DNA of 64,000 bases from positions 828,818-892,817 of the forward strand of contig CAZSXR010000001.1 in NCBI GenBank assembly GCA_964611335.1, written 5' to 3'. The notes below the pieces were generated by a model. That model was not told the origin of the DNA. It saw nothing but the letters and a program-made list of their open reading frames with translations, and made no database searches. Source of the stretch: an uncultured Pseudobdellovibrionaceae bacterium (GTDB lineage Bacteria; Bdellovibrionota_B; Oligoflexia; Oligoflexales; Bog-1112). Shown piece by piece: positions 5,101 through 29,550 of this stretch (positions are counted from its first letter, which is position 1; every line of letters begins with the position of its first letter). The position numbers and the translations under genes were made by a program.

Positions 5101-5329
5101 TGTGTTTCCTCCATGTTTTGTAAGGGCCCATAGTACTCAATTTCTCCGAATTGACAAGCTAGTACCGCCGGTGCGGGGGATTCTTCGAGAAAATAAAGAT
5201 CGGCGAGCCATTCTTCCTAAAAACGGCGGTATCTGACTGTATTTGCAATTCTATCTCAAGAAATATTCAAGATTTTCGAGAGGGAGCCGAATCAAGGCTT
5301 CGAGGTTTAATAAGAGTGGAAAAGGGCTT

Positions 5330-6019
5330 ATGACGGAATCTTTGGTTGAATTTTTCAACAACAGCTTCGTGTATTATTGTGTTTTGGATTCAGAATATAA
5401 GTTTTTATTGGTGAATCCTGCATTCGAGCAAAGACTGGGTTATGCTTATAACGATATGTTAGGGAAGTCTTTTATAGATTTTTTACATGAGAATGATCGT
5501 GTTCAAACGTTAAAAGTCATGCAGTCCATTAAAGAGGACAAAGGATACGAAGTCCCTTTCGAAAGTCGTATATGCAGTAAGTTCGGTATTTATTTTAAAC
5601 TTTCATGGTCTTGTTTTTGCAGAAATGGAAAGACCTATGTGAGTGGTCGATATCTAAATGAAGACTCTTTCAATACCCCTGAAAAAAAAGCAAGACGCAT
5701 TGCCAATTTAAGTTTGCTTGCGATGAGTAAGATGGTGGGTGGTATTGCTCATGAGATCAATAATCCTCTTGCAATCATTCATGGCAGAGCCAATATGTTT
5801 AAAAATTTGATTAGTGAAAAAAACGATCTCAATAGAGACGACTTGATTTCTATGGTTTCAGCGATGGAAGAGACCTCTTTGCGTATTGCAAAAATATTGC
5901 AAAATCTTCGTGTGTTTGCACATGAAAGCAATCCTGATCTTTTGGAAGATTCTACTTTGAAAAAAAAGATTGAAAGCGCGTTGTCAGAAGAATTAAGGGA
6001 TTTTCAGAAAAAACAATAG
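5330..6019 (+). CDS. PAS + HisKA(DHp) protein lacking a catalytic HATPase domain
   Basis: The track ORF starts at TTG 5243; I use the first ATG at 5330. A PAS-like segment (YYCVLDSEYKFLLVNPAFEQRLGY) is followed by the H-box GGIAHEINNPLAII (His codon 5750-5752). The ORF stops 9 nt before the next gene with no N/G1/F/G2 ATP-binding boxes. Confidence 0.6.
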   Translation: MTESLVEFFNNSFVYYCVLDSEYKFLLVNPAFEQRLGYAYNDMLGKSFIDFLHENDRVQTLKVMQSIKEDKGYEVPFESRICSKFGIYFKLSWSCFCRNGKTYVSGRYLNEDSFNTPEKKARRIANLSLLAMSKMVGGIAHEINNPLAIIHGRANMFKNLISEKNDLNRDDLISMVSAMEETSLRIAKILQNLRVFAHESNPDLLEDSTLKKKIESALSEELRDFQKKQ

Positions 6020-6028
6020 AGGTGACCT

Positions 6029-6769
6029 ATGGATTCAAAATCATTTTCAATTTTAGTTGTCGATGATGAAGAGGGTATACGCTCCATGATTTCGGAAGTT
6101 CTTCGTTTAGAAGGTTACGATTGCATCACTGCAAAAGATGGAGAGGAAGCATACAAAGCCATCTGTTCACAGAAAATTGATGCGGTTATTTCCGATATTA
6201 TGATGCCGGAGTTAGGCGGTCTGGATCTTCTGGATAAAGTTAAAGATCGTAACCCTTTGCTTCCCCACTTAGCTTTGATTTCAGGTTTTACAGAGGCTTC
6301 GTTAGCAGATGTTTATGACAAAGGAGCGGAAGCCTTTCTTGCAAAACCCTTTGAAATACGTTCTTTAGTTAACCTCGTAAGACGTTTACTGAGTCCTATG
6401 GAAAATTTATGGAAGGATGAGTTAGAAGAGAATGAAAATAGATTTTTAAAATATAAATTTCCTTCTTTTAAAGAAAGTATACAGGATCGAAAACTTTTAC
6501 TAGGAAGGGGTGGATTCTTTCTCAATGCAGAGTGTCTTGAAAATATCCCTACCATAGGTTCTCAGGTTCGCTTTCATTTCGATTTCGAGAAAAAAGATCA
6601 CAGCCCCATTTACGGGCAAGGCACTGTGCGTTGGATTCGAAAAAAGGAACAACCTGAGTACAGCGCTGGTGTTGGTGTGGAATTTGATTTTCTAGATATA
6701 AACTCGCGTGCAGATTTTGTATACGATGTGAAAACATCAAAATCTAAAGCCTTCATCCCGAAGGGTTAA
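6029..6769 (+). CDS. Response regulator: receiver domain + PilZ-like C-terminal domain
   Basis: Receiver motifs are present: ILVVDDEEG, DAVISDIMMPELGG (phospho-acceptor Asp) and LAKPF. The C-terminal ~100 aa (GRGGFFL...GQGTVRWI...GVGVEFDFLD) resemble a PilZ-type beta-barrel with non-canonical RxxxR/DxSxxG motifs. Confidence 0.7.
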   Translation: MDSKSFSILVVDDEEGIRSMISEVLRLEGYDCITAKDGEEAYKAICSQKIDAVISDIMMPELGGLDLLDKVKDRNPLLPHLALISGFTEASLADVYDKGAEAFLAKPFEIRSLVNLVRRLLSPMENLWKDELEENENRFLKYKFPSFKESIQDRKLLLGRGGFFLNAECLENIPTIGSQVRFHFDFEKKDHSPIYGQGTVRWIRKKEQPEYSAGVGVEFDFLDINSRADFVYDVKTSKSKAFIPKG

Positions 6770-15676: not shown

Positions 15677-16546
15677 ATGACAAACGTAGATTCCGAACAA
15701 CGTGTAATCAACAATGTATCCGATACAGCCTGGTTAGTCGCAACTCTGCGTGCACAGGAAAGTCAACGCAGCGATGCTTTATTCAAAGATCCTTATGCAA
15801 AAATCCTGGTTGGAGATAAGGGAACACACATGGTTGAAAAACTTGTGGGTTCTTACGATTTTTCATGGTTTATGGCTGTTCGTACCATCGTAATTGATAA
15901 GATGATTTCTTATGCAATTGAGAATTATGCGATAGATTGTGTAGTCAATTTGGCTTGTGGATTGTGCGCTAGACCTTATCGCTTAGAATTTCCAAAAAAA
16001 ATATCGTGGGTTGATGTCGATTTTGACGATGTCATTCAATACAAAAGATCAAAGTTAGAGAAAGAAAAACCTCATTGTGATTTGGAATATTTCTCCTGTG
16101 ATCTGAGAGAAACAACAGAAAGAGAAAGGTTGTGGAAAAACCTCAACTCACGGTCGCAAAATATACTTGTGATCACCGAAGGACTCCTCCTCTACTTGAA
16201 AGAAGAGAATGTCCAAGATCTTGCTCGTGATTTGAAAAGCATAAGTGGTGTGAAACTATGGATTACAGATTTATACCGAGGTGCCGGAGGAAAAACAACG
16301 AAGTGGTACAATTATATGGAAGCTTCTAACGCAGCATTTCGTTGGTATTGTGCAGATTATAAAAGTTTCTTTGAACAATTTGATTGGAAGTCTATAGACG
16401 AAAGAGATCTCTTGAAAGAAGCTGTCTATTACAAAAGATTGCCTTCCCAAGTCGTTCCAGAATCTTTTAAAAACTCTCCCGTATTTGATGAAGATTTTGA
16501 TGCGATGTGGGAGAAGTCTGGGATCTGGATGATGCAAAAAATTTAA
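15677..16546 (+). CDS. Class I SAM-dependent methyltransferase (leucine carboxyl / O-methyltransferase-like family)
   Basis: N-terminal DTAWLVATLRAQESQRSDALFKDPYA and the SAM-binding-like VVNLACGLCARPYRL resemble the LCM/putative O-methyltransferase family. Confidence 0.65.
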   Translation: MTNVDSEQRVINNVSDTAWLVATLRAQESQRSDALFKDPYAKILVGDKGTHMVEKLVGSYDFSWFMAVRTIVIDKMISYAIENYAIDCVVNLACGLCARPYRLEFPKKISWVDVDFDDVIQYKRSKLEKEKPHCDLEYFSCDLRETTERERLWKNLNSRSQNILVITEGLLLYLKEENVQDLARDLKSISGVKLWITDLYRGAGGKTTKWYNYMEASNAAFRWYCADYKSFFEQFDWKSIDERDLLKEAVYYKRLPSQVVPESFKNSPVFDEDFDAMWEKSGIWMMQKI

Positions 16547-16637
16547 ACAAAAAATGTAGATCCAACTTAGAATATTTACATCTTCCCTGTGAAATAATCC
16601 CCCTTAGTGATGCCTTAAAATTAAAGAAGGAGAACGT

Positions 16638-17411
16638 ATGCGTAAATCGTTTTCTGGTATTCTGTTTGCATTTTTGACTTTCTATGCAGAAATGTCTTTT
16701 TGTCAAAATAAAATATCTATCACAGGGATTCTCAATGCTATGGAAGAAGGCATCTCCGATTCCTATTACATGAAAGATGTTTTAGAAAAGATTTCAGTTA
16801 AAACCAAAGAATTTTATATTGAAAATGATATACATACTTCCGAACAAGAATATGCATTTCTTCTTACAGCTGCTAGTTTTGAAGTTTTATTTGAAGTAGT
16901 AAGAGATGCAGCGCTCGAAGCTTCAACCATAGCGGAATACACATCCCTTTCACGAAATCAGCTCTCTCTTTTAAGAAGGGAAATTATTAAAGAAGCACAG
17001 TCTAATCCCTTTCAATTCGCGAGAGAAACAAGATGCTTCAAGCAGGAACCAGATATCTACTACAGAGTTAAAAATATTATCAAAGAAAATATTTATGCCG
17101 CACTTTACCGTGATGTATATTGCAAAATTTTAGCAGAGCTTATAGAAAAAAAGGATGAAATTCCCTTTCCGCGTCTTGCAAAAACTGTTTATAAAATGGC
17201 GGAAATAGAAAGTTTCAACAGTTTCTTGTTGCTTACGAAATCGATATTAAGACTTGCTTATGATGAAGCGATGAAATTTCAAGCGAATGCCGTTATGGCA
17301 AATCCCTTTTTTATCGAATCTTTTGTAAAGGAGTACAGACATTCGAAATTTGAAAACCAAATTCCCAGCCTCAATCTCTACTTAACGCCATGGAAGTGTG
17401 CTTCAAACTAA
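16638..17411 (+). CDS. Hypothetical exported helical protein
   Basis: AAGGAG SD 6 nt upstream. Signal peptide MRKSFSGILFAFLTFYAEMSFC; no known motif. Confidence 0.45.
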   Translation: MRKSFSGILFAFLTFYAEMSFCQNKISITGILNAMEEGISDSYYMKDVLEKISVKTKEFYIENDIHTSEQEYAFLLTAASFEVLFEVVRDAALEASTIAEYTSLSRNQLSLLRREIIKEAQSNPFQFARETRCFKQEPDIYYRVKNIIKENIYAALYRDVYCKILAELIEKKDEIPFPRLAKTVYKMAEIESFNSFLLLTKSILRLAYDEAMKFQANAVMANPFFIESFVKEYRHSKFENQIPSLNLYLTPWKCASN

Positions 17412-18688
17412 AAATGAAAAAGGTGATTTAGGTTATTAAATGCATGATTTGCATGATGATCCAGTCCTAAGCCATCATGAATATTTGCAGTCAGATCTAA
17501 ATGATGACCGGCTATATCGGCTCCATGATGAAAGCCTGAACTGACAGCATCTGTCCAATGTCCAACATGACTTCCTATACTGTGCGTAGTATCCACCCAC
17601 AAACTTGCATGATGTGTTCCGTCATCTGAAGTTTCCTGGGAACTCATGCTATCATTTCCCGAAATAGAAGAAGTAGTATCAGGAGTTGTAGAACTCATAT
17701 AGTGGTTCAAAGTTGAATCTTGCGTTGAATTTGAACCTGTTAAAGTCAATCCATTACTAGGACCCGTTGCATTCATACAAACAGAAATAACAGGCAAATA
17801 AACAATAAGTGGCTTTCCTGAATTGAGTGCAACAGCTGTGTCTGGAGGTACGGGAGAAGGTGTTAAACAATTTGGATCTGCAGCCACTACCGTAGGGGTT
17901 GGAGAAGATGTAGGTGGTGTCGTATCAGGTATCGGAGTCGGTGGACTTACAAGAGTTGGAGGAGAAATAGGTTCAGGTTCAGAAGTGGGCGTAGGTGTAA
18001 GTGTAGGTGTTGTAGGTGTCTCAGAGCTTGTAGGAGTAGTACTAGGTGTTGGAGATTGCGCAGATACAGGTGTCTCTGGAGTATGAATAATAGGTGTCGA
18101 AATAACATCATGGTGAAATACAGTCGGCTCTTGTTGTGCCACCAAGATTTCCTTAGGAGTAGGATTGATAGCATCCACCTGTTGCACAACAGGGGAACTA
18201 GAAGCTAACGCCATTCCACCTCCGTTGTTTACTCCAGGAAAAGAGTGAGAATCTACAGGGTGATTGAGGTGAACAATAGGTGTAAGTCTGTGAGTTGTAT
18301 CCAGTGTAGGGAGACCGGAATCAACATGTGTAGACGCAGTCATGCGGTCCGTGTTTAGCTCAGTAAAATTCTTAACTTCTATAGAAGTCGAATGGAAAGC
18401 AACAGGAGCACTAACATTTACAGGAGCACCACGAATTTCTCCGCCTTCTGTCAGTGGTCTCCTTTCAACGATATCTTCTTTGTTCATAACACCGAGTACA
18501 GGATCACCCTCTGTGGGTTGTATATGGATTCTTTCAAATACCTTCGATTTGATGTCGCCTACTTCACTCTTTTTCTGCATGCTCATCATCTCAGATAACT
18601 TTTCAATCTGCTCATCAGAACTGCCTTCTTTGGTGTTGATAGGCTTTGTTTCGTCCATCATTTTTGCAATTTTTTCAGTCAGTTTCAT
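17408..18688 (-). CDS. Hypothetical leaderless low-complexity protein (Pro/Thr/Ser-rich core, His-rich C-terminal tail)
   Basis: 426-aa ORF with no signal peptide (MKLTEKIAKMMDETKP...). It has a PT-rich block TPTSSETPTTPTLTPTPTSEPEPISPPTLVSPPTPIPDTTPPTSSPTPT. The last ~75 aa contain many His (...GHHLDLTANIHDGLGLDHHANHAFNNLNHLFHF). Confidence 0.5.
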   Translation of the reverse strand: MKLTEKIAKMMDETKPINTKEGSSDEQIEKLSEMMSMQKKSEVGDIKSKVFERIHIQPTEGDPVLGVMNKEDIVERRPLTEGGEIRGAPVNVSAPVAFHSTSIEVKNFTELNTDRMTASTHVDSGLPTLDTTHRLTPIVHLNHPVDSHSFPGVNNGGGMALASSSPVVQQVDAINPTPKEILVAQQEPTVFHHDVISTPIIHTPETPVSAQSPTPSTTPTSSETPTTPTLTPTPTSEPEPISPPTLVSPPTPIPDTTPPTSSPTPTVVAADPNCLTPSPVPPDTAVALNSGKPLIVYLPVISVCMNATGPSNGLTLTGSNSTQDSTLNHYMSSTTPDTTSSISGNDSMSSQETSDDGTHHASLWVDTTHSIGSHVGHWTDAVSSGFHHGADIAGHHLDLTANIHDGLGLDHHANHAFNNLNHLFHF

Positions 18689-19068
18689 CTACTGATCCTA
18701 AAGATCGAAAGCCAAAACACACCACCGCATGAACGAAAGAATACAGAAATTGTTCCGACTCTCTTTCTTATATTGGTTTGAGATTTACTCAGGAGGCTCA
18801 TCGGAATTCGAGGGCTAAACTTTTGAAAATTTTATAGTAATGAAAATTATCAAGAATATAAGTATAAAATCATGTGGTTATATAAATTAAAAATGCAAAA
18901 AAAATCTTTCATTAGATCTAAAAAGCAGCTTGTTTTGAAAGTCTAGTCTAGGCCTAAGTTCTTAATTTTTCCAGTAAAGTACCGAAGACAGTGGAAGCGG
19001 AGTTTAACCATTTTAAGAATGTTGTGCTTATGTGGGTAAATTTAAATTTTCACTTAGTGAAAACGAAG

Positions 19069-20376
19069 ATGACTAAATATTTATTTCTATTCTTTTATTT
19101 TTCACTAACTGCTCAAGCAGTTTTGCTTCCTGAACAGGATGGGCGATCTAAATTTCTTTATAGAATTTTAAGAGCAGCTCACTTTAGTTCAGAGCATCTT
19201 GCGGATGAGATGGAAGTTGAAGCTGCCTATGCAGATAGGGAAGCAGCAAAAGGTTCAAATTCTTTTCAATTTTACAATAATACTTCAGCTGCAGAAGCTT
19301 ATCTTTTTACTCAGAATGGTGGTTGGTATCCTGAACTGAGTTCCTTCTTTGAGCTTAGAAAGAATTTATGGGGGCGTTCTTTGGACGCCCAGGTGAAATT
19401 GAAAGGTGCGGAACTTGCTGAACGCAAAGTCCTTTCGGAATCTGCAGAAAGCGCTTTGCTTCGAAGATTTTCTTTACTGTATATAGACTGGATTTACGCA
19501 GCTGAGACTGCAGATATTTTTGCAAAGCAAGTAGATGTTTTGAAAAAAATTACAGAATTGAGTGGAAAACGTTATGCAAAAGGTGATGATACTAAACTCA
19601 CTATGCAACAGGTGAAGATTCGACTTGTCAATGCTGAAACTCAAAAAACACAAACGCAAATGCGAGCAAAGTCTATTGCGCAACGAATTGAATTGGAATC
19701 ACGTGATCGAGTTAACGAACGAGCAGATTCCAAAGCCGTAGCAAGTATATTCGCATCTCTGTTGAAAAATGAAGTTGGAGAAAAAGAAGCTCTTGCCAAT
19801 CGTGTTCGAGAAGCACGCTTGAATACAGCAGATGCAAATGTGCAATCCGCAGATGATAATTGGGGACCTCGTCTGGACTTTATTGCAAGAGCAGGAGCGA
19901 CAAATTATACGACCTCGAACAGTTTTGCCTACTCGGGTAAAAATTTAGTTCCTGAGGTGGATATAGGTTTAGAACTGAATATACCCATTTATGATAGCCA
20001 TACTCATAACCATGCTTTGAGGTCTGCTTTGCTCAGACGCAATGCTGTCGAAGAACGCAACAAAGCGGAAAGTCTAAGCAACCAAGAACAGATCATCGAG
20101 TGGGAGTCGAATAAAAAATTGGGTGAACTTTCAGAAAAAAATTATGAAGAGATCGGAACTGTCGCAGTTGCTCGGAGGCAGGCTTTAGAGAAACAGTTTG
20201 CGATGGGAATGATTACACTCTTTGACCTTCTCAACGCTACAGAAGATGTTTTGATATATGAAAAACAGCGCATTTTTGATGCGCAACAGAGGCTTCAATC
20301 GTATGTGGAGTTAGCATTTTCGAAAAATCGATTGACGATTGATTCTTTGAAGAAAGTTCAAGAGGCTTCGAAATGA
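19069..20376 (+). CDS. TolC-like outer membrane efflux/secretion protein (OMF)
   Basis: I moved the start to ATG 19069, giving the signal peptide MTKYLFLFFYFSLTAQA. Two long helical repeats and beta segments fit the outer membrane efflux protein family. Its stop overlaps the next start in ATGA. Confidence 0.75.
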   Translation: MTKYLFLFFYFSLTAQAVLLPEQDGRSKFLYRILRAAHFSSEHLADEMEVEAAYADREAAKGSNSFQFYNNTSAAEAYLFTQNGGWYPELSSFFELRKNLWGRSLDAQVKLKGAELAERKVLSESAESALLRRFSLLYIDWIYAAETADIFAKQVDVLKKITELSGKRYAKGDDTKLTMQQVKIRLVNAETQKTQTQMRAKSIAQRIELESRDRVNERADSKAVASIFASLLKNEVGEKEALANRVREARLNTADANVQSADDNWGPRLDFIARAGATNYTTSNSFAYSGKNLVPEVDIGLELNIPIYDSHTHNHALRSALLRRNAVEERNKAESLSNQEQIIEWESNKKLGELSEKNYEEIGTVAVARRQALEKQFAMGMITLFDLLNATEDVLIYEKQRIFDAQQRLQSYVELAFSKNRLTIDSLKKVQEASK

Positions 20377-22094
20377 GCGAAATGAAACAAAATAAAGTTC
20401 TAACAGAGAATGCAAAAGAGCACGTAGTTGAAAAAGTCTCTCTGAGAAGTGCTCTGAAATCCTCACCGTCGAGTGTGGTGGACATAGTTCTCGGAACTCT
20501 TATTCTGAATATTTTAGCTTTGGCGCTCCCTCTTACATTGATGCAGGTCTATGATCGTATTATTGCGCAGCATGCAACTGAAACTTTATTTGTTCTCTCG
20601 TCTTCTTGTGCTTTGGCCGTAGTCTTTGAAACCATTGTCCATGTTTCCAGAGATCGTATTGCAAGTTGGTGCGGCTCTCGCTTCGAGTTCAATGGAATTA
20701 TGAAGGGCTTTGAGATGCTTCTTCACTCTCCTATATTTCGATTGGAGCAAGAACGTACTATAGAAAGATTAGAGCAGATGGAATCTTTTTCTGCGTTGAA
20801 ATCCACTTATTTTCTTAGAGCAATTCAAAATTTTATAGACATCCCCTTCGCATTCATCAACCTCTTTCTTGTCTATTATTTGCTTCCGAGAGTGGGGCTG
20901 TATCTCTCTTGTCTTGTGGTAATTATTTTAGTTTTTCATTTTATTCTTTTTGTTCTTTCTTATTTTTATCAGAAAAAAGAGCATTCCACGCATAGAAATC
21001 GAGACAAAAAAATTATTGAAACTTTTCGCCTCATAAATATGATTCGTTCTCTTTCAATGGAAGAAGCCATACTGCGTCGCATAGAAAAAGTTCAGGAGAA
21101 ATTTGCAAATTTACATTTAAAATCTATAGGGTTTGCTTCTCTCTCTTCGAGCTTTTTGCAAGCCGTACCTCAAGTTGCCATCTTCATAGTTCTTCTTGTT
21201 GGCTCTGAAGGGGTGCTTTCTCACAAGATCTCTATAGGTGTACTTACAACAGCGATGATGTTAGCGGGTCGATGTGTGTCCCCTGTTATAAGTTTGGTGT
21301 CAGGCTGGTTGCATTTTGAGGAAAAGAATATACAGGAGCGTAATGTTAATGAGTTACTTTCTATGGAAGAAGATCCATGGACGAACGAAGAGATGGGTCC
21401 AAAGTTAAACGGTTCTATACGTTTAGAAAATATTAGTTTTACTTATAATCCTGAATCAGAAGCAATTTTGAAGAAAATTTCAGTTAATATTATTGAAAAA
21501 ACTCTGTGTTATGTTCAGACGGATTTCGATAGATCCGCGAGTGTATTTATAGATATTCTCAACAGAAATCTGGAAGCAACAGCAGGTCAGATTTATTTTG
21601 ATGACAAACCTTTGAAAGATATTTTTGTAAATGAATTTTACAGAGATGTACATGCCATTTACAAAACACCTACATTTTTTCGAGGAACGGTTCTTGAGAA
21701 TCTTGCTTCTTTCGATGTTGCTCGTTTTGATGATGCTATTCGCGTTTCTAAAGAGTTGGGGCTTGAAGATGTCATCGCAAAATTCGAATTGGGATACAGT
21801 TCCATCTTCGATAGAGAGAATCTTCTTTCCATATCTCAAAATCTGCTTATGCAAATGGCAATTGCACGAGCGGTTGTTAAAAGTCCTTCAATACTCCTCA
21901 CAAACGGTATTGAATCAGGTATGGATGTGGATACGAAAAAACTCTTTATAAAAGTTCTCCGCTTATTGAAAGGAAAATGTACGATTATCTGCGTTTCTAA
22001 CGATCCTGTGACAGCAAGCATCAGTGATCGTATTTTATACTTACGAGAAGGAATAATGATAGACGATAGGGAAGAAGCGTTTAATGCTACTTGA
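20373..22094 (+). CDS. ABC half-transporter 1 (PrtD-like TMD, fully degenerate NBD)
   Basis: The first TM region LPLTLMQVYDRII is PrtD/AprD-like. The NBD fold is recognisable (IRLENISFTY...), but the Walker A position reads IIEKTLCYVQTDFDRSAS, the signature is LSISQ, the Walker B position is ILLTNG and the H-loop position is VSND. Confidence 0.8.
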   Translation: MSEMKQNKVLTENAKEHVVEKVSLRSALKSSPSSVVDIVLGTLILNILALALPLTLMQVYDRIIAQHATETLFVLSSSCALAVVFETIVHVSRDRIASWCGSRFEFNGIMKGFEMLLHSPIFRLEQERTIERLEQMESFSALKSTYFLRAIQNFIDIPFAFINLFLVYYLLPRVGLYLSCLVVIILVFHFILFVLSYFYQKKEHSTHRNRDKKIIETFRLINMIRSLSMEEAILRRIEKVQEKFANLHLKSIGFASLSSSFLQAVPQVAIFIVLLVGSEGVLSHKISIGVLTTAMMLAGRCVSPVISLVSGWLHFEEKNIQERNVNELLSMEEDPWTNEEMGPKLNGSIRLENISFTYNPESEAILKKISVNIIEKTLCYVQTDFDRSASVFIDILNRNLEATAGQIYFDDKPLKDIFVNEFYRDVHAIYKTPTFFRGTVLENLASFDVARFDDAIRVSKELGLEDVIAKFELGYSSIFDRENLLSISQNLLMQMAIARAVVKSPSILLTNGIESGMDVDTKKLFIKVLRLLKGKCTIICVSNDPVTASISDRILYLREGIMIDDREEAFNAT

Positions 22095-24183
22095 CGAGCA
22101 AAAAGCACAGAAAGCCGATTATACAGCGCTCAGACGCTGCTTAGTCGTTCTTTTGCAATCCATCGGGTGGAATGGAGATGTGAAATTTTTGCGCGAATTT
22201 TTCGAGAAGCATGATACAATGGAAACGATTCTGAATGGTCTCAGTCATATGAATTATGTTGCAGAGCCACTCAGAACACGTCTTAACGAGCTCGACGACC
22301 GTCTTCTGCCTTGTTTGTTTACTCCTGATGAAGGTGAGCCCTTCGTCGTCTTGAAACATTTCAAGAAGAAAAATACTTATAAAATTTATGTAGGAAAACT
22401 GGACTCTCATCTTGAGATTTCTAGCTATCCCTCATGGGGGCAAGCGCTTCTTGTAAAAGATCCTAAAGAGCAGTCGACAACTCTTCATGATCCGCAACCG
22501 CTGTGGTTCAGAAAAGTTCTCATGCGTTTTAAGAAACATATTATATACGGACTTTTTATTTCCTTCTTGCTGACTCTTCTTTCTTTGTCGATGCCATTTT
22601 TTATCAATTTGATTTTTAAGAAGATAGCAACTGAGCAAATAACCGTCGATTTTACCATGATCTTCTACGGTCTCTTGATATATCTTGGGACATCCATTGT
22701 GCTGACTCTGATACGAAGTAGCGTGCAAACAATTATCAGTGTGCGTATGGGTTACTTGGTGATCAATGAAGTTATTCGACGCATATTATTTCTCCCTTCC
22801 TCCTACACTGAAACAGCTCCTATCAGCAGTCAACTTGCTAGGGTCAAAGACTTTGAATCGGTTAAAGAATTCTTCTCGGGACCAGCTATGACAGCTCTGT
22901 TGGATATGCCATTCGTTCTTATTCTTTTAGGAGGTCTTGCTTGGATTGATCCTATTCTCGCTTCTATTCCTCTTATTTCTATTATGGCTTTTACTCTGAT
23001 GACTATTTCCATCAAACAGGTTGTAAAAATTACAAACCTAACTGCTGCACAAACAACCAAAGAGATGCAGGAGTTTCTACTCGATGCTTTAACGAATTTA
23101 AAATCCATTCGAAATTTAGGATACACCGAGATATGGATTAAACGCTTCAGAGATCTTTCTTCGAGAGCGATTGTTGCAAGTCGCGAATCTGCCGATGTAA
23201 CAGGATTGATTATCAATCTTGCCCAGGGGATTACATCGGTTGCAGGACTTTTAACAATGACGGTAGGTGTGCATCGTATTTTTGCTGGTATTCTCCAACC
23301 AAGTGCTTTGATGGCTGCTATGCTTTTAACTTGGAGAATTTTAGCTCCGATGAAAACCGGTTTTAGCGTGTTTTCACAAATCGACCGATTGCGTCGAAGC
23401 ATTGAACAGATTGATCGCCTCATGTCTATTGAAATTGAAAAGCATGATTTCACATCACGAAAAAGTTTTTCAAAAATTGAGGGACGTTTGATTGTATCTC
23501 AAGTCTCTTTAAGATATGGAAGGGATACAAATCCCGTTTTACTCGGTGTCAGTTTTGATGCAAAACCTGGAGAAACGATTGCAATTCTTGGTCATGGTGG
23601 TGCTGGAAAATCAACGCTTATCAAATTGATCATGGCTATGTATGCACCTCAAACAGGTCAAGTTCTTATAGATGGAAAGAATACAAGACAGATTGATCCT
23701 ATGGAATTGCGAAGATCCATTGCATACATGCCTTCAAATATCAGCTTTCTATCTGGAACTCTGCGTAGTCAGATTCAAATGATCAACCCTCATGCAAGTT
23801 CAAAAAGCATAAGACGCGCATTGGAAAGAGTCGGTTTAGATTCGGAAATAAAATCGTTGGAGAAAGGTCTTAACACAAGAACCAATCAGGATAACCTACA
23901 CATACTTACAGCTTCCTTTATGAGACGTTTTTACTTTGCTCTCGTATTGATGAAAGAATCAGGTTTGTGGATTTTAGATAACCCTGCTTTGGATCTTGAA
24001 AGTCATCATGAAAATGAAATGAAAAAAATAATAGAAGAACATAAAGGCAAATCAACGATTCTCATCGCAGCTCAAGATCCAAATTATGCTTTGCTCGCAG
24101 ATAGAGTTTTGATTTTGAATAATGGTCGTTCTATAGGTTTTGCATCTCCTTCGGCTTTAGAATCTTCGAAACCACCTATATAG
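22084..24183 (+). CDS. ABC half-transporter 2 (N-terminal C39-like domain, TMD, NBD with intact Walker A only)
   Basis: The N-terminal ~135 aa resemble a C39 peptidase-like domain without the catalytic Cys/His (PFVVLKH). It has a six-TM region. Walker A is GHGGAGKST (23590-23616), Walker B is LWILDN (23965-23982, Glu->Asn) and the signature position is LTASF. Confidence 0.85.
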   Translation: MLLDEQKAQKADYTALRRCLVVLLQSIGWNGDVKFLREFFEKHDTMETILNGLSHMNYVAEPLRTRLNELDDRLLPCLFTPDEGEPFVVLKHFKKKNTYKIYVGKLDSHLEISSYPSWGQALLVKDPKEQSTTLHDPQPLWFRKVLMRFKKHIIYGLFISFLLTLLSLSMPFFINLIFKKIATEQITVDFTMIFYGLLIYLGTSIVLTLIRSSVQTIISVRMGYLVINEVIRRILFLPSSYTETAPISSQLARVKDFESVKEFFSGPAMTALLDMPFVLILLGGLAWIDPILASIPLISIMAFTLMTISIKQVVKITNLTAAQTTKEMQEFLLDALTNLKSIRNLGYTEIWIKRFRDLSSRAIVASRESADVTGLIINLAQGITSVAGLLTMTVGVHRIFAGILQPSALMAAMLLTWRILAPMKTGFSVFSQIDRLRRSIEQIDRLMSIEIEKHDFTSRKSFSKIEGRLIVSQVSLRYGRDTNPVLLGVSFDAKPGETIAILGHGGAGKSTLIKLIMAMYAPQTGQVLIDGKNTRQIDPMELRRSIAYMPSNISFLSGTLRSQIQMINPHASSKSIRRALERVGLDSEIKSLEKGLNTRTNQDNLHILTASFMRRFYFALVLMKESGLWILDNPALDLESHHENEMKKIIEEHKGKSTILIAAQDPNYALLADRVLILNNGRSIGFASPSALESSKPPI

Positions 24184-24201
24184 GCTTGTTTAGAGGAATA
24201 T

Positions 24202-25182
24202 ATGATGAGGAAAAAAGCGAGACAAAAATGGTTGGGTGCAGCGAGCTTACTCGAAGAACAGTCGCATCTTCCGTGGGAGCGCACCTTGATTATTCTTGTC
24301 ATCGTTATAACCTTTGGCTTTATAGAGTGGGCTTCTCGTACTCCTGTAGATGAATTGGTCTCTGCAACAGGGGAATTGGTTCCTGAAAGTCATATCGTTA
24401 CAGTTCAAGCAGGTATTCCGGGAATAGTACAGGACATACTTGTAGGTGAAGGATCTGTCGTTAAAAAAGATCAAGTTCTTGTTAAACTCCAAATCGATGA
24501 CAACTTGGAAGACATCCGACGTTATAATATTCAAAGAAAAGGCTTAAAAAGCGAACTCTATTTTATCGAGAAAGAATTAAAAGCACGAAAAGAACTTGCA
24601 GATGAAGGTCTCTTTCCTTCTCTTTCCCTTTTACAACTTCAAGCAAAAAAATATGAAATACGGAATAAAATAGAAGAGTTGAATGAAACGTCGAAGTATC
24701 GTTTTGGAAGTGCACAACGTTCCATCATCGTAGCTCCAGTTTCAGGACAAATTCAAGAATTCCGAATTCCTCACAAACTTGCAAGTGTTCATGCAGGTGA
24801 AGCTCTGATGGAGATTGTTCCGCAAGCTGTTGATCAAATCGTATCATTGAAAGTTAAACCTTCCGACATCGGTCATATACATGTCGGGCAAGATGTGATC
24901 TTACGTGTAACAACTTTTGACCCTTCCCGTTATGGAGTCGTTGAAGGAAAGTTGACATATATTTCTCCCGCAACCATTGTCGGACGCGATGGCCTTCCTT
25001 ACTTTCAATGCAAGGTCCATTTGGGAAGACAATTCGTGACATCGTTAGTCACACGTAAACAGCATATTTTGAAAACAGGTATGATGGTCGATGCGGAAAT
25101 TAAAATCGGTTCCAAAACGGTCTTACAATACCTTCTCAAACCTGTTCTTGCAATCACTGCAGGTGCTCTGCATGAAAGATAA
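24202..25182 (+). CDS. HlyD-family periplasmic adaptor (membrane fusion protein), short form
   Basis: N-terminal TM anchor (LIILVIVITFGFIEW), lipoyl-like halves (GIVQDILVGEGSVVKKDQVL / VSGQIQEF), a short coiled coil, and the typical C-terminus KTVLQYLLKPVL...ALHER. It is 326 aa. Confidence 0.85.
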   Translation: MMRKKARQKWLGAASLLEEQSHLPWERTLIILVIVITFGFIEWASRTPVDELVSATGELVPESHIVTVQAGIPGIVQDILVGEGSVVKKDQVLVKLQIDDNLEDIRRYNIQRKGLKSELYFIEKELKARKELADEGLFPSLSLLQLQAKKYEIRNKIEELNETSKYRFGSAQRSIIVAPVSGQIQEFRIPHKLASVHAGEALMEIVPQAVDQIVSLKVKPSDIGHIHVGQDVILRVTTFDPSRYGVVEGKLTYISPATIVGRDGLPYFQCKVHLGRQFVTSLVTRKQHILKTGMMVDAEIKIGSKTVLQYLLKPVLAITAGALHER

Positions 25183-25869
25183 AAAAATCTTTCCCGGATA
25201 ATCCTTCCATAAACTGTTGATCAAAAGATCTTGAAGCAGCAAATTCCATTCCGGAAATAGAGTATATTCATTTCCGAACGTAGAGTTTTTCAAAGTTCGT
25301 TGACGTTGCGATGTCCAAATCAAATCTCCACTTTGAGTGTCTATAAGAAGTAAAATCAAACTCAGTGATCGTTTTGAATGCAAGAGTCCTCTGTCATTTT
25401 CTTTTTCTTCTTTTGCTAGATAAAGAAAGGGAATAAGCAAAGCATCCGTATGATGTGTATGAACACTGAAATCATCAAGCCAAGACAACCACTCTTTTTT
25501 CTTCTGAACATGCTCATCGTAAAATTCTGCTATGTTAGGCGTATCCTTATGAAGATTCCACGTGCTCAAAAGTGTACTCAGCAAAGGTTCTTTTTTTGCT
25601 TCTGCTAAAGCTTTGTCAACAGCTCGTGGGCTCAGTCCTCGCATGAAATTCTGCCCTCTAAAATTATCGAGAATATGAGCGTCCACACTAGCACAAAGCG
25701 TTGCTATATCGACAGTGTGCGGCCAAGAGCGGCATTTGAGAACCGCGGTGCGTGCGGGTATGTAAGAGCGATAGTTTGTTTGTATGCCCGACAGCAGCTC
25801 TGGGTGATAAGAGCTTGCGCAGGAATAAGATATAAATATGAGAAAGAAGAATACACGATTCATAATCAA
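25123..25869 (-). CDS. Hypothetical lipoprotein
   Basis: Signal/lipobox MIMNRVFFFLIFISYSC. No known motif. Its 3' end overlaps the HlyD gene by 60 nt (convergent). Confidence 0.45.
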   Translation of the reverse strand: MIMNRVFFFLIFISYSCASSYHPELLSGIQTNYRSYIPARTAVLKCRSWPHTVDIATLCASVDAHILDNFRGQNFMRGLSPRAVDKALAEAKKEPLLSTLLSTWNLHKDTPNIAEFYDEHVQKKKEWLSWLDDFSVHTHHTDALLIPFLYLAKEEKENDRGLLHSKRSLSLILLLIDTQSGDLIWTSQRQRTLKNSTFGNEYTLFPEWNLLLQDLLINSLWKDYPGKIFLSFMQSTCSDCKNRFEKVL

Positions 25870-27597: not shown

Positions 27598-29550
27598 ATG
27601 AGGAATCTTTTTGGAATATTGTCAATCGTAGGAATGGGTGTCTTTGCTTGTAGCAGAACCAGATCTACACCTAAACCTACTTCATCATCTGCGGATGCCG
27701 CAGCAGCAGCTGCAGCAGCAGGTGGGAATGTTGATCTTGCGTGTGGTCAGCTTGCAGTGACCGCAGCGAAGACTCCATCTTTTTCACTTGCTTCAAATTC
27801 AAGGGCTTTGTCTTTAATAGATCTCACGCCTGCAGATGTTTTTATGCAGGAAGCTGATAATTTTGTAGATGCTCAATTGAATCCTAATATTGTAGCAACG
27901 CCAAAAGGTTTAGGCTTGCAAGTTCAAGGTGAAATTGCTGTTCGTGATTACCAACTCAGTATACAAGGTGTGCCACTTTGTGGAAATGAACTGAGCATTT
28001 ATGGTCGACCTAATCAGGAACTTTGGATGAAAGGAAATGTGCCTTCTATTGAAGGTCTTGATTCAAGTGTTTTCGATAGTATTTCAAACTTGGAATTTCC
28101 TTCAGAATCTTTTGCAGTGTCCTCCGTTTATTCAAAATTGAATTTAAAAGGAGCTGTTTCAAAAGTAAAGACAACGAAGCAGTGTATTATTTTTGAAAAT
28201 GGATCTTTTATTCCTGCAAGAGAAATTTCTTTTACAGTCAATCGTAGACCTTACTATGGACTAGCAACCACTCAGGGTTACGGTCTTGTAGATAGCGACC
28301 CTGTGCGTGCTGCATCTCCTTCCTATTTGGAAGAAGTTTCTACATCAACGTCCACTTCTACAAATGTTGCAAATGGTTCTGCTGTAGGCACAGCCAGTGT
28401 GTCTTCCTTACAAGTGAATTCTCTCAATGGGAGTTCTCAAAATGTATATGTTACAAAAACTGTACAGCTTACAGGATTGAGTAATGGGGGATCTTTGTGT
28501 TCAGCCCCCTTTGTGCTGATTACACTGACGGGACCTTCTAGCGCTCCCGTTCTCAACCCTCCACCTTTTAGTACGAGTGAAAATTTTGTTTATCCCGATA
28601 AAACTTCCGGTTTTTATTCCGTCACAACGTTTTATAACGCGATGTCTCACGTTGATTGGCTTTTGAAAAACGGATACCTTTCCAACTGGCCAGGACCGCA
28701 AGTTCAAATTGTTTTGAATCTGATAGATTCAAATGGTGATGGGCAAAATTTGGGACGCAATAATATAGCGGTCTTCTTACCAAATGGAAACAGTCTTACA
28801 GATCCCCCACAAATTGAACTCGGTAATGGAGATGGAAAGTTACTTCAGAATCTTTGGTCTGATCCAGACGCTATTCAACACGAGACAGGTCACCATCTTG
28901 TCTATACACGTCTTACACAGATTTCAAATAAGATCTCTGTTGTCATTCATGAAGGTTACGCAGATAGTCAGGTTCTTTTGCAAAATCAAAGCCCTTGTTT
29001 GGGAACCACAATATGTCCAACAGGTGCAGCTGTGTGTATTTCAAATGCTTGTCTAAGATCCGCTGCTAATAACTTCACAATGGCTGCTCCTAATTGTCCA
29101 AGCGATGGGTCTGTAGGTCCTCCTCAATGTTTACCAACAGAAGTTCATCAACGATCACAGTTGATATCAGGATTAATGTGGGATATAGCGCAAGATATAG
29201 GACCCGCAAATGGTGGTTATGAAGCTGCATTGAAACTTCAAATGGATTCCATTCCCTATTTATCTTCGAGTAGTGAATACGGAGATTTGTTAGAAGCTCT
29301 CATAAAAGCAGATCAAGATCTTGGTGGAAGTCCAAGTGGAAAATACCAAGCACACTTAATAAAAGAAATGTGTGCTCGTGGTTTTGACAACGCAGCAAAC
29401 AGCACCAATGGGAAATCCTGGATGAGTCAGATCAGTGTTTCTTACACTTGTCCCGAAGGCAGTGGGGCAATACCCACAGGTGCTCTTCAGCCAGCTCCTT
29501 TGACAAGTGGAGCACTCAATATTCCTACCACTGTCACCGGTGGACAATAA
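27598..29550 (+). CDS. Exported zinc metalloprotease (gluzincin, thermolysin-like HExxH...E spacing), lipoprotein signal
   Basis: Signal/lipobox MRNLFGILSIVGMGVFAC. HETGH lies at 28879-28893, and a Glu in HEGYADS (28951-28953) falls exactly 20 residues after the second His, as in M4-type gluzincins. The remainder is unrecognised and includes polyAla and STSTSTS tracts. Confidence 0.6.
   Translation: MRNLFGILSIVGMGVFACSRTRSTPKPTSSSADAAAAAAAAGGNVDLACGQLAVTAAKTPSFSLASNSRALSLIDLTPADVFMQEADNFVDAQLNPNIVATPKGLGLQVQGEIAVRDYQLSIQGVPLCGNELSIYGRPNQELWMKGNVPSIEGLDSSVFDSISNLEFPSESFAVSSVYSKLNLKGAVSKVKTTKQCIIFENGSFIPAREISFTVNRRPYYGLATTQGYGLVDSDPVRAASPSYLEEVSTSTSTSTNVANGSAVGTASVSSLQVNSLNGSSQNVYVTKTVQLTGLSNGGSLCSAPFVLITLTGPSSAPVLNPPPFSTSENFVYPDKTSGFYSVTTFYNAMSHVDWLLKNGYLSNWPGPQVQIVLNLIDSNGDGQNLGRNNIAVFLPNGNSLTDPPQIELGNGDGKLLQNLWSDPDAIQHETGHHLVYTRLTQISNKISVVIHEGYADSQVLLQNQSPCLGTTICPTGAAVCISNACLRSAANNFTMAAPNCPSDGSVGPPQCLPTEVHQRSQLISGLMWDIAQDIGPANGGYEAALKLQMDSIPYLSSSSEYGDLLEALIKADQDLGGSPSGKYQAHLIKEMCARGFDNAANSTNGKSWMSQISVSYTCPEGSGAIPTGALQPAPLTSGALNIPTTVTGGQ

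Follow-up and report, generated by a model that had tools for sequence, protein, structure and literature searches.

Exporters of the ATP-binding cassette (ABC) type, including those of type I secretion systems (T1SS), are thought to need at least one ATP site that hydrolyses, and mutants of the haemolysin exporter HlyB at E631 and H662 show neither ATPase activity nor secretion. HlyB of Escherichia coli (HlyB/HlyD/TolC; 7SGR, 8DCK, 3ZUA) forms a homodimer in which both ATP sites are canonical. Systems with two different ABC proteins have also been described: the MARTX system of Vibrio (RtxB/RtxD/RtxE/TolC) is a four-component T1SS in which both ABC proteins are required (PMC3034196), NHLP/N11P export clusters combine an ABC protein carrying a peptidase domain, one lacking it and an HlyD-like protein (PMC2887384), and the Legionella LB2SS and LB3SS show the same pairing of a C39-bearing with a C39-less ABC protein (PMC6959600). 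In this study, we analysed a stretch of 64,000 nucleotides (hereafter the window; positions 828,818 to 892,817 of contig CAZSXR010000001.1, assembly GCA_964611335.1) from an uncultured, Gram-negative Pseudobdellovibrionaceae bacterium with a DNA of about 40% G+C. It contains an operon for an outer-membrane factor (OMF), two ABC half-transporters (ABC-1 and ABC-2) and a HlyD-family periplasmic adaptor. An earlier note on this DNA, made from the sequence alone, had regarded the two-ABC arrangement as known mainly from MARTX; this precedent holds, and NHLP and LB2SS/LB3SS are further ones. The two-ABC architecture itself is already known. What appears to be new, as far as the libraries and literature searched show, is the total loss of catalytic residues under selection, together with a truncated adaptor and the type of the candidate cargo.

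The four open reading frames (ORFs) are co-directional and tightly coupled in the order OMF, ABC-1, ABC-2 and adaptor, as seen from the ORF list and a check of the junctions at the DNA level (Table 1). The OMF gene and ABC-1 share an ATGA stop/start overlap (20373-20376), the former ending at 20376 and the latter starting at 20373. The ATG of ABC-2 at 22084 lies 11 nt within the 3' end of ABC-1, and the adaptor ATG at 24202 follows a spacer of 18 nt that contains the Shine-Dalgarno sequence AGAGGA. An alternative OMF start, GTG at 18991, is less likely. The Pfam domains found were OEP, ABC_membrane with ABC_tran twice, and HlyD_3/HlyD_D23. For every component the top NCBIfam model was a T1SS model, yet every score remained under the curated cutoff; the four products are divergent members of T1SS families. 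The genes, junctions and four-component composition described in the earlier note were thus confirmed. The OMF is of the TolC family expected for a T1SS, based on Pfam OEP (two repeats, E 5e-16; score 59.4 bits, cutoff 22), while TIGR01844 gave 49 bits, far under its cutoff of 225. Both ABC proteins find their best NCBIfam and PDB matches among T1SS-type inner-membrane exporters, though under the subfamily cutoffs. Promoter and terminator scans returned matches at chance level only, and a search for transcripts returned no RNA runs.

The main feature of the operon, which was overlooked in the earlier note, is that neither nucleotide-binding domain (NBD) appears to possess its catalytic residues. 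In ABC-1 every ATP motif is lost, both in a HMMER alignment to HlyB (8DCK) and, independently and at the same columns, in a MAFFT alignment. On ABC-1, Pfam ABC_tran barely passes its cutoff of 25 (25.7 bits), and it is missing from the precomputed matches of 4/6 ABC-1 orthologues. ABC-2 retains the A-loop Tyr in addition to the elements listed as intact or retained in Table 1. Among the features of a hydrolysing T1SS NBD (Walker A Lys, Walker B Asp-Glu, H-loop His and LSGGQ), ABC-1 has by sequence none and ABC-2 only Walker A and the Asp. Combining the two proteins, composite site 1 has no P-loop, and site 2 has a P-loop and a partner signature of the form xSxSL with no general base, linchpin His or Q-loop Gln. 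From these alignments, no canonical catalytic site is predicted to be assemblable from ABC-1 and ABC-2, whatever their stoichiometry.

Five further metagenomic lineages from freshwater, groundwater and sludge carry this set of four genes in unchanged order and with near-identical lengths, at orthologue identities of 41-47% (OMF), 45-57% (ABC-1), 61-69% (ABC-2) and 60-66% (adaptor). Sequencing runs containing the organism itself were freshwater, groundwater or wastewater metagenomes, and no close orthologue was found among GTDB species representatives. Based on MAFFT alignments, the loss of all motifs is common to 7/7 ABC-1 proteins of this clade. GHxGxGKS[TS] and the Walker B Asp are present in all six clade ABC-2 proteins (6/6), in which Glu is replaced by N, A or T, His by Q, and Gln by S or A. 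Mean pairwise identities within the clade are 58% for the transmembrane domain (TMD) and 48% for the NBD of ABC-1, and 54%, 75% and 66% for the C39-like domain (CLD), TMD and NBD of ABC-2, respectively. The ABC-1 NBD keeps dozens of invariant columns, so that its fold appears to be maintained under selection despite the loss of motifs. A comparison with contigs of near-identical strains from three public runs (X2-X4), in which contig coverage is patchy, revealed nine polymorphic positions in the cassette, with a ratio of 8 synonymous to 1 nonsynonymous. Taken together, the NBD identities, the invariant columns and the mostly synonymous polymorphism indicate that the cassette is not decaying. 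The comparative check proposed in the earlier note found the cassette conserved across the clade, with the gene upstream of it in the same position in 4/5 lineages.

Next relatives of the cassette (hereafter tier 2) are numerous and only about 25-38% identical, and they encode the same ABC-1/ABC-2/HlyD trio. Their hosts are Roseospirillum and other Alphaproteobacteria, a gammaproteobacterial metagenome-assembled genome, SAR324, Lambdaproteobacteria, Desulfamplus (Desulfobacterota-like), Magnetococcales and Latescibacterota. None of the tier-2 ABC proteins reaches a curated NCBIfam cutoff (LssB scores of 413-521 bits), and the sources name them only generically; ABC orthologues are labelled "LapB" by the Joint Genome Institute. 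The signature LSGGQ is found in neither tier-2 paralogue, ABC-1 having LPxG[IL] or LSQGV and ABC-2 LxxSF or LPGSV. Pairing the proteins locus by locus separated two groups. At loci L005, L009-L011 and L014, both NBDs mostly have Walker A, Asp-Glu and the H-loop His. At L006-L008, L013 and L015, a dead ABC-1 (Walker A Lys missing, Glu replaced by Lys or Arg, His lost) is paired with an ABC-2 that has Walker A, Gln, His and Asp-Glu (in L008 Asp-Asp), which is the layout of one degenerate and one active site. This second group is nearest to the window's clade by ABC-2 identity (34-38% vs 30-33%), and L013 also has the OMF-first gene order of the clade. The loss of Gln, Glu and His from ABC-2 is restricted to the clade; since its closest relatives keep all three elements, this loss is specific and derived. 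The data fit an evolutionary path from two active sites to one and then to none, with truncation of the adaptor in the clade. In four of the tier-2 loci (Table 1) a hemerythrin HHE protein of 457-623 aa with one to four domains is encoded between ABC-1 and ABC-2; these are loci with a dead ABC-1 NBD, and the HHE protein may be an O2/iron-sensing regulator or a partner of the exporter.

The best overall explanation of these findings, to which we give about an even chance, is that ABC-1 and ABC-2 form a heterodimer with a single ATP site of little or no hydrolytic activity and that the protein encoded upstream is its cargo. We consider it rather unlikely that the operon encodes a conventional ATP-hydrolysing T1SS in which the altered residues sustain a slow but sufficient cycle at the single ABC-2 site. 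Such a cycle would agree with the strict conservation of Walker A, Walker B Asp and A-loop Tyr in ABC-2, which places nucleotide binding under selection, and with the non-LSGGQ signatures of the whole tier-2 family, which speak for tolerated motif drift; moreover, low activity survives substitution of the catalytic Glu in some ABC proteins, including ABCB1 double mutants (PMC7756269). However, Glu, H-loop His and Q-loop Gln are lost in 6/6 orthologues together with the partner's signature, and in known degenerate sites a combined loss of this kind marks a non-hydrolytic site (PMC7756269).

Asymmetric NBDs are well described in TM287/288, TmrAB, BmrCD, TAP1/2 and CFTR, where one site is without the catalytic Glu and the H-loop His and ATP acts as a structural ligand (PMC7756269, PMC7205462). 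In heterodimeric exporters the degenerate site is structural, whereas the consensus site energises transport (PMC7756269). While those heterodimers retain one consensus hydrolysing site, the window's clade retains none. As in ABC-2, the H-loop position of TAP1 is occupied by Gln.

Concerning the class of the two ABC proteins, the earlier note had described ABC-1 as PrtD/AprD-like and the pair as drawn from different T1SS classes, neither of which our results support. ABC-1 scored 228.6 bits with LssB (TIGR03375; E 1e-67), 178 with HlyB and 163 with PrtD (TIGR01842); with cutoffs of 693.1 for TIGR03375 and 510 for TIGR01842, it belongs by these models to neither LssB nor PrtD/AprD. In a distance tree of the TMD and NBD core, the ABC-1 and ABC-2 families form two separate, old clades inside the LssB/HlyB-type radiation, and they are thus ancient paralogous families within this group. 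The model ranking and the tree together rule out a PrtD-class origin of ABC-1; the motif MQVYDRI is not diagnostic of PrtD because it is common to tier-2 ABC-1 proteins. As had been noted before, ABC-1 has no N-terminal accessory domain. It aligns to positions 135-682 of the LssB model, i.e. from just past the CLD, and looks like an LssB-type core minus that domain; its best PDB sequence match is HlyB (8DCK, E 1e-43). ABC-2 likewise has LssB as its best NCBIfam model (341.3 bits, under the cutoff of 693.1; E 1e-101) and HlyB as its best PDB match (E 6e-54).

The N-terminal domain of ABC-2 had been read as C39-like without the peptidase Cys and His, and this was substantiated by fold comparison. 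An AlphaFold2 (AF2) model built from 21 family sequences reached a predicted local distance difference test score (pLDDT) of 82.7, and its top Foldseek match was the HlyB CLD (3ZUA; E 2.9e-6, TM-score 0.60/0.62), followed by HlyB/D (7SGR); the Vibrio CLD 3B79 gave a TM-score of 0.72 and PCAT1 was weaker. A profile comparison to C39- and CLD-bearing ABC proteins (hhalign) gave a probability of 74%. The catalytic Cys column is occupied by Ala15 and the His column by Pro86. ABC-2 hence carries an N-terminal C39 fold without the catalytic Cys, as in the HlyB group.

The system resembles HlyB/HlyD/TolC in its dead C39-like domain, its HlyD-family adaptor and its TolC-family OMF. Unlike HlyB with its two canonical sites, it has two paralogues and no canonical site; the HlyB CLD retains the His where ABC-2 has Pro, and HlyD is about 478 aa long with a long hairpin compared to the shorter adaptor of the window. 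In contrast to the haemolysin system, the OMF gene lies inside the operon and there is no RTX cargo. The likeness to LssB/LssD of Legionella and LapB/LapC/LapE rests on TIGR03375 as the best curated model for both ABC proteins; the window differs in having two ABC proteins instead of one, degenerate NBDs and no RTX repeats. With NHLP, LB2SS and LB3SS it shares the three-gene unit and the asymmetric two-ABC architecture, but its C39 domain is non-catalytic, its OMF gene stands in the operon and its NBDs are degenerate. Tested against TIGR03796/03797, the ABC proteins scored 111 and 182 bits with cutoffs of 709-853, and the adaptor scored 38 bits with the NHLP model TIGR03794 (cutoff 156), placing the system outside NHLP; no NHLP/Nif11 precursor or small leader-peptide gene was noted in the ORF list and Pfam scan of the window. 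MARTX is comparable in that its toxin operon is transcribed divergently from that of the transporter, as is the candidate cargo gene here. However, MARTX has the order B-D-E with the OMF elsewhere and a giant RTX cargo, and the window, with its OMF-ABC-ABC-adaptor order, encodes no RTX protein or acyltransferase and is not a MARTX system. To our knowledge, neither MARTX ATPase has been reported to have lost catalytic motifs. Overall, the system would work most like a CLD-type T1SS (HlyB/LssB/LapB) and appears to be built like an NHLP-type two-ABC exporter.

The adaptor was recognised by Pfam HlyD_3 (51.7 bits, cutoff 22.2) and, with 193 bits, came just under the TIGR01843 cutoff of 208.65 because its hairpin is truncated. 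Its shortness had been recognised from the start, with a shorter coiled-coil hairpin as the implication, and this was supported: alignment to the 441-476 aa adaptors of the nearest tier-2 systems shows that about 125 hairpin residues are absent, all in in-frame blocks within the coiled-coil hairpin and identical across the clade, leaving about 75 hairpin residues. The adaptor is 326-327 aa long in all clade lineages.

The absence of RTX and double-glycine cargo reported in the earlier note was verified for the window, where GGxGxD gave one chance match outside any ORF and no RTX protein; what had escaped attention is a conserved candidate cargo gene directly upstream of the operon, on the other strand. 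Its product has an isoelectric point (pI) of 5.2, two Cys and 6% His, and shows no signal peptide, no transmembrane or hydrophobic segment and no Pfam family. It combines an N-terminal module of about 100 aa with a spacer rich in Pro and Thr (aa 201-300) and a C-terminal third rich in His, Asp and Ser. Being acidic, disordered, Cys-poor and without signal peptide, it fits the profile of a T1SS substrate, and we regard it as a plausible one and as the best cargo candidate. Strain differences in the gene are 15 synonymous to 2 nonsynonymous, which indicates that this low-complexity ORF is a real, constrained gene. The N-terminal module (45-52% identity; 44 invariant columns in an alignment of 4 lineages at 45-47% identity) starts the gene divergently upstream of the OMF in L003/L004, L017 and L018, i.e. 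in 4/5 lineages with upstream sequence. A profile search and two metagenome scans revealed no relatives of it outside the clade. An exhaustive phmmer search with the module returned the query itself and one weak match, although the HMMER bias filter may hide low-complexity relatives. The module thus seems confined to the rare clade of the window. The only complete orthologue, in L003, is 1187 aa long if counted from the conserved start MTLTEKIAKMM and 1177 aa as called, has a pI of 4.6, is more repetitive and rich in His, Asp, Ser and Asn, and ends in ...FHNHFNFHF.

The N-terminal module is possibly an element of recognition or retention. A possible analogy is LapA-type cargo, which carries a retention module at its N-terminus and is displayed via the OMF. 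No Peptidase_C93 or LapD-type match was found among the large window ORFs scanned, and residues 1-130 of the candidate cargo contain no AA or TAAG motif as a di-alanine site.

It is unlikely, in our estimate, that the cassette exports some other substrate (a small molecule, lipid, polysaccharide or distant protein) or forms a static or regulatory complex, with the upstream gene a mere neighbour. Its flanks are conserved housekeeping synteny, with PccB upstream and an aldehyde dehydrogenase and a 248-aa protein downstream, and the adjacency of the cargo gene may therefore reflect vertical inheritance; the L001/L002 cassette has no upstream gene nearby. The adaptor has a length like that of small-molecule pumps, with weak matches to TIGR02971 (DevB) and TIGR01730, and neither an RTX repeat nor a GG leader nor LapG/LapD was seen among the ORFs scanned. 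Set against this, the CLD binds protein substrates in HlyB-type systems (PMC8277102), the upstream protein combines the typical cargo profile with conserved termini, and its divergent position is constant in 4 lineages whose other neighbours differ.

Several related loci also encode proteins of interest near their transporters. Directly downstream of the adaptor in L008 lies a gene for a 1643-aa protein (pI 4.1, no signal peptide or Pfam family), unlike the candidate cargo of the window and likely the giant cargo of that system. In Roseospirillum (L005), cadherin-like repeat proteins are encoded about 3 kb downstream. A short flagellin of 289 aa (Flagellin_N and Flagellin_C) is encoded divergently just upstream of ABC-1 in L015, which is probably coincidental.

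A third possibility is that the ABC proteins form separate homodimers, ABC-2 as the transporter and ABC-1 as an accessory, decoy or scaffold in the adaptor hexamer, comparable to idle HlyB dimers. HlyB/D assemblies (PDB 7SGR/8DCK) contain three ABC dimers per six adaptors, which counts for such an arrangement, as does a dead-NBD ABC-1-like gene standing beside an adaptor without ABC-2 in L012. We consider it quite improbable, since in the clade the ABC genes are strictly adjacent with overlapping reading frames, and the closest relatives pair a dead ABC-1 P-loop with a degenerate ABC-2 signature, a hallmark of heterodimers (PMC7756269). Beyond the clade, ABC-1 and ABC-2 are adjacent, or split only by the hemerythrin gene, in all 14 other related loci with enough flank, and neither was seen as an independent unit with its own adaptor in related loci, save the orphan ABC-1-like gene of L012. 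Nor was any homologous cassette found that has already been characterised. An ABC-2 homodimer would, in any case, equally be without catalytic Glu, His, Gln and signature, leaving the main conclusion unchanged. The L012 locus (Magnetococcales HHB-1) encodes a HlyD adaptor of 439 aa followed by the ABC-1-like protein of 555 aa with a fully degenerate NBD; the HHB-1 genome also has a complete trio (L015), and the pair could be explained as an orphan partner, as a partial duplication or as an ATP-independent system.

A non-functional, decaying relic, in which loss of ATPase motifs, adaptor truncation and NCBIfam scores uniformly under the family cutoffs would be expected, is hardly credible and appears strongly disfavoured by four intact ORFs of constant lengths in five lineages at 41-69% identity, an invariant ABC-2 Walker A, TMDs that are 58% and 75% identical, the 8:1 ratio of synonymous to nonsynonymous polymorphism, and adaptor deletions that are in-frame and clade-identical.

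Returning to the heterodimer with a single ATP site, we propose that the operon and the divergent cargo gene constitute a chromosomal five-gene module, a streamlined, derived member of an LssB-like two-ABC T1SS family. ABC-1 and ABC-2 would be an obligate heterodimer, as suggested by the overlapping genes, the strict co-occurrence and the complementary degeneration in the sister group; ABC-1 would be unable to work alone because it should be unable to bind ATP. The single nucleotide site would consist of the ABC-2 P-loop and the ABC-1 pseudo-signature xSxSL, with Mg-ATP bound as a dimerisation or gating ligand and hydrolysis very slow or absent. Heterodimers, six short-hairpin adaptors and an OMF trimer would then build an envelope-spanning duct. 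With lower confidence, we suggest that the upstream protein may be recruited by the ABC-2 CLD and threaded C-terminus first, its conserved N-terminal module serving recognition or retention. Directionality would have to come from outside the NBDs, either from extracellular folding or metal binding of the His/Asp-rich C-terminal part, acting as a ratchet, or from the proton-motive force; for RTX cargo, Ca2+-driven folding ratchets the protein outward. ATP binding would represent one gating stroke per cargo and not a hydrolytic cycle; in TmrAB, ATP binding alone is able to drive one translocation stroke (PMC7205462).

In this sense we infer hydrolysis-independent secretion, and a number of points weigh against it. 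Residual hydrolysis via non-canonical residues is possible, and the genome beyond the 64 kb of the window may encode a third ABC partner with catalytic competence; among the window ORFs scanned, no third ABC ATPase and no LapG or LapD gene was found. A duct with so much shorter a hairpin would have to reach the OMF with ABC proteins that have no periplasmic domain. The assignment of the cargo rests on gene adjacency, the upstream gene is missing near the L001/L002 cassette, the similar tail is known from two complete C-termini only, and a single-sequence AF2 model of the cargo (pLDDT 38) was uninformative.

A bolder version, which we hold to be doubtful, is a T1SS-derived trans-envelope machine operating without any ATP hydrolysis. 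Its single non-catalytic ATP site would serve as a gate or dimerisation ligand, and energy supplied elsewhere than at the NBDs, by an extracellular metal-binding or folding ratchet or by the proton-motive force, would drive a disordered His-rich protein through the duct or keep it anchored there permanently. If true, this would be a single-stroke or passive "ATP-gated protein channel", a CFTR-like end point of ABC exporter evolution in bacterial secretion. The cassette represents a natural two-ABC T1SS in which selection appears to have kept nucleotide binding while the general base, H-loop His, Q-loop Gln and both signatures were lost, and would thereby allow the need of such pumps for ATP hydrolysis to be tested in a natural system. 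Its relatives with two, one and no competent sites could serve as an evolutionary experiment on binding versus hydrolysis of ATP in protein translocation. Should the pair still hydrolyse ATP, it would do so with an alternative catalytic constellation for an ABC NBD. In addition, the comparison defines a broad, uncurated LssB-like two-ABC family with non-LSGGQ signatures, which annotation lumps under generic names, and connects the cassette with a candidate cargo of a new kind, namely a disordered protein rich in Pro/Thr and His.

Table 1. Coordinates of the operon, its sequence motifs, the candidate cargo gene and other features (window positions unless a locus is given)
Feature	Position	Strand	Remark
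OMF, TolC family, 435 aa	19069-20376	+	signal peptide (MTKYLFLFFYFSLTAQA); Pfam OEP
ABC-1 half-transporter, 573 aa	20373-22094	+	TMD ~aa 31-335, NBD-fold domain ~aa 345-573
ABC-1 Walker A	21516-21542	+	QTDFDRSAS (canonical GxxGxGKS/T)
ABC-1 Q-loop	21654-21671	+	Q replaced by K
ABC-1 signature	21831-21845	+	LSGGQ replaced by ISQNL
ABC-1 Walker B and D-loop	21891-21926	+	D-E replaced by N-G; D-loop SGMD retained
ABC-1 H-loop	21990-22004	+	H replaced by N
ABC-2, 699 aa	22084-24183	+	C39-like ~aa 1-130, TMD ~aa 145-455, NBD ~aa 465-699
ABC-2 C39-like domain (CLD)	22084-22473	+	AF2 model, Foldseek, hhalign
ABC-2 Walker A	23590-23616	+	intact, GHGGAGKST; alignment to HlyB
ABC-2 Q-loop	23725-23742	+	Q replaced by S
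ABC-2 signature	23905-23919	+	LSGGQ replaced by LTASF
ABC-2 Walker B	23965-24000	+	Asp retained, catalytic Glu replaced by Asn in LWILDN
ABC-2 H-loop	24064-24078	+	H replaced by Q
HlyD-family periplasmic adaptor, 326 aa	24202-25182	+	transmembrane anchor aa 29-44
Adaptor coiled-coil hairpin remnant	24490-24723	+	~aa 97-174
Candidate cargo gene, 426 aa	17408-18688	-	divergent from operon
Cargo N-terminal module	18389-18688	-	M.LTEKIAKMM ... DIKSKV.E..IQP.EGDPVLGV..ED.VERR
Cargo C-terminal 30 residues	17411-17500	-	end in ...NNLNHLFHF; candidate C-terminal T1SS signal
Divergent intergenic (promoter) region, cargo gene/operon	18689-19068		14 strain single-nucleotide polymorphisms and one 1-nt indel
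PAS-HisKA protein and receiver-PilZ fusion	5243-6769	+	
LCM-type methyltransferase and 257-aa protein	15677-17411		
248-aa protein	25123-25869	-	
650-aa lipoprotein-like protein	27598-29550	+	
HHE protein gene, SAR324	L007:11615-12988		
HHE protein gene, Lambdaproteobacteria	L008:11653-13029		
HHE protein gene, Desulfamplus	L013:4170-5675		
HHE protein gene, Magnetococcales	L015:11568-13439		
1643-aa protein	L008:16483-21414		
Adaptor and ABC-1-like protein, HHB-1	L012:331-3321		
Short flagellin	L015:8799-9668	-	

Synonymous and intergenic polymorphisms are about tenfold denser, as an approximate ratio, at 17408-19068, where 17 + 14 sites fall within 1.66 kb, than in the cassette, which has 9 sites over 6.1 kb. 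This raised density at the cargo gene and the intergenic region may reflect recombinational allele exchange at a surface-protein locus. An apparent contig joint in run X3 (17747 to 25401) was rejected as spurious, as its 21-nt sides lie inside an otherwise unrelated contig.

Regarding the neighbourhood of the cassette, the window contains no rRNA, tRNA or Rfam match, and five of its housekeeping proteins are singletons in 90% clusters. The stretch that separates the cargo gene from the acyl-CoA carboxylase gene encodes a leucine carboxyl (LCM-type) methyltransferase of 289 aa (E 5e-31) and a family-less protein of 257 aa; L003 has a small outer-membrane beta-barrel protein gene there instead. 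The gene for the 248-aa protein is convergent with the adaptor gene, which it overlaps by 60 nt; its product has a signal- or lipoprotein-like N-terminus and no Pfam family. It is kept near the cassette in L001, L003 and L017 (42-46% identity) and is divergent from a TonB-dependent receptor gene in L001 and L017. With a candidate cargo that is His-rich, this pairing hints at a connection with metal uptake.

Further away, a PAS-HisKA protein with apparently no ATPase domain in its ORF is followed by a receiver-PilZ fusion, which together are an unusual hybrid of two-component and cyclic di-GMP output. An HExxH motif (QHETGHH) is present in the 650-aa lipoprotein-like protein (MRNLFGILSIVGMGVFAC...), which also contains Ala- and Ser/Thr-rich low-complexity sequence, has no Pfam match and may be an uncharacterised secreted zinc metalloprotease.

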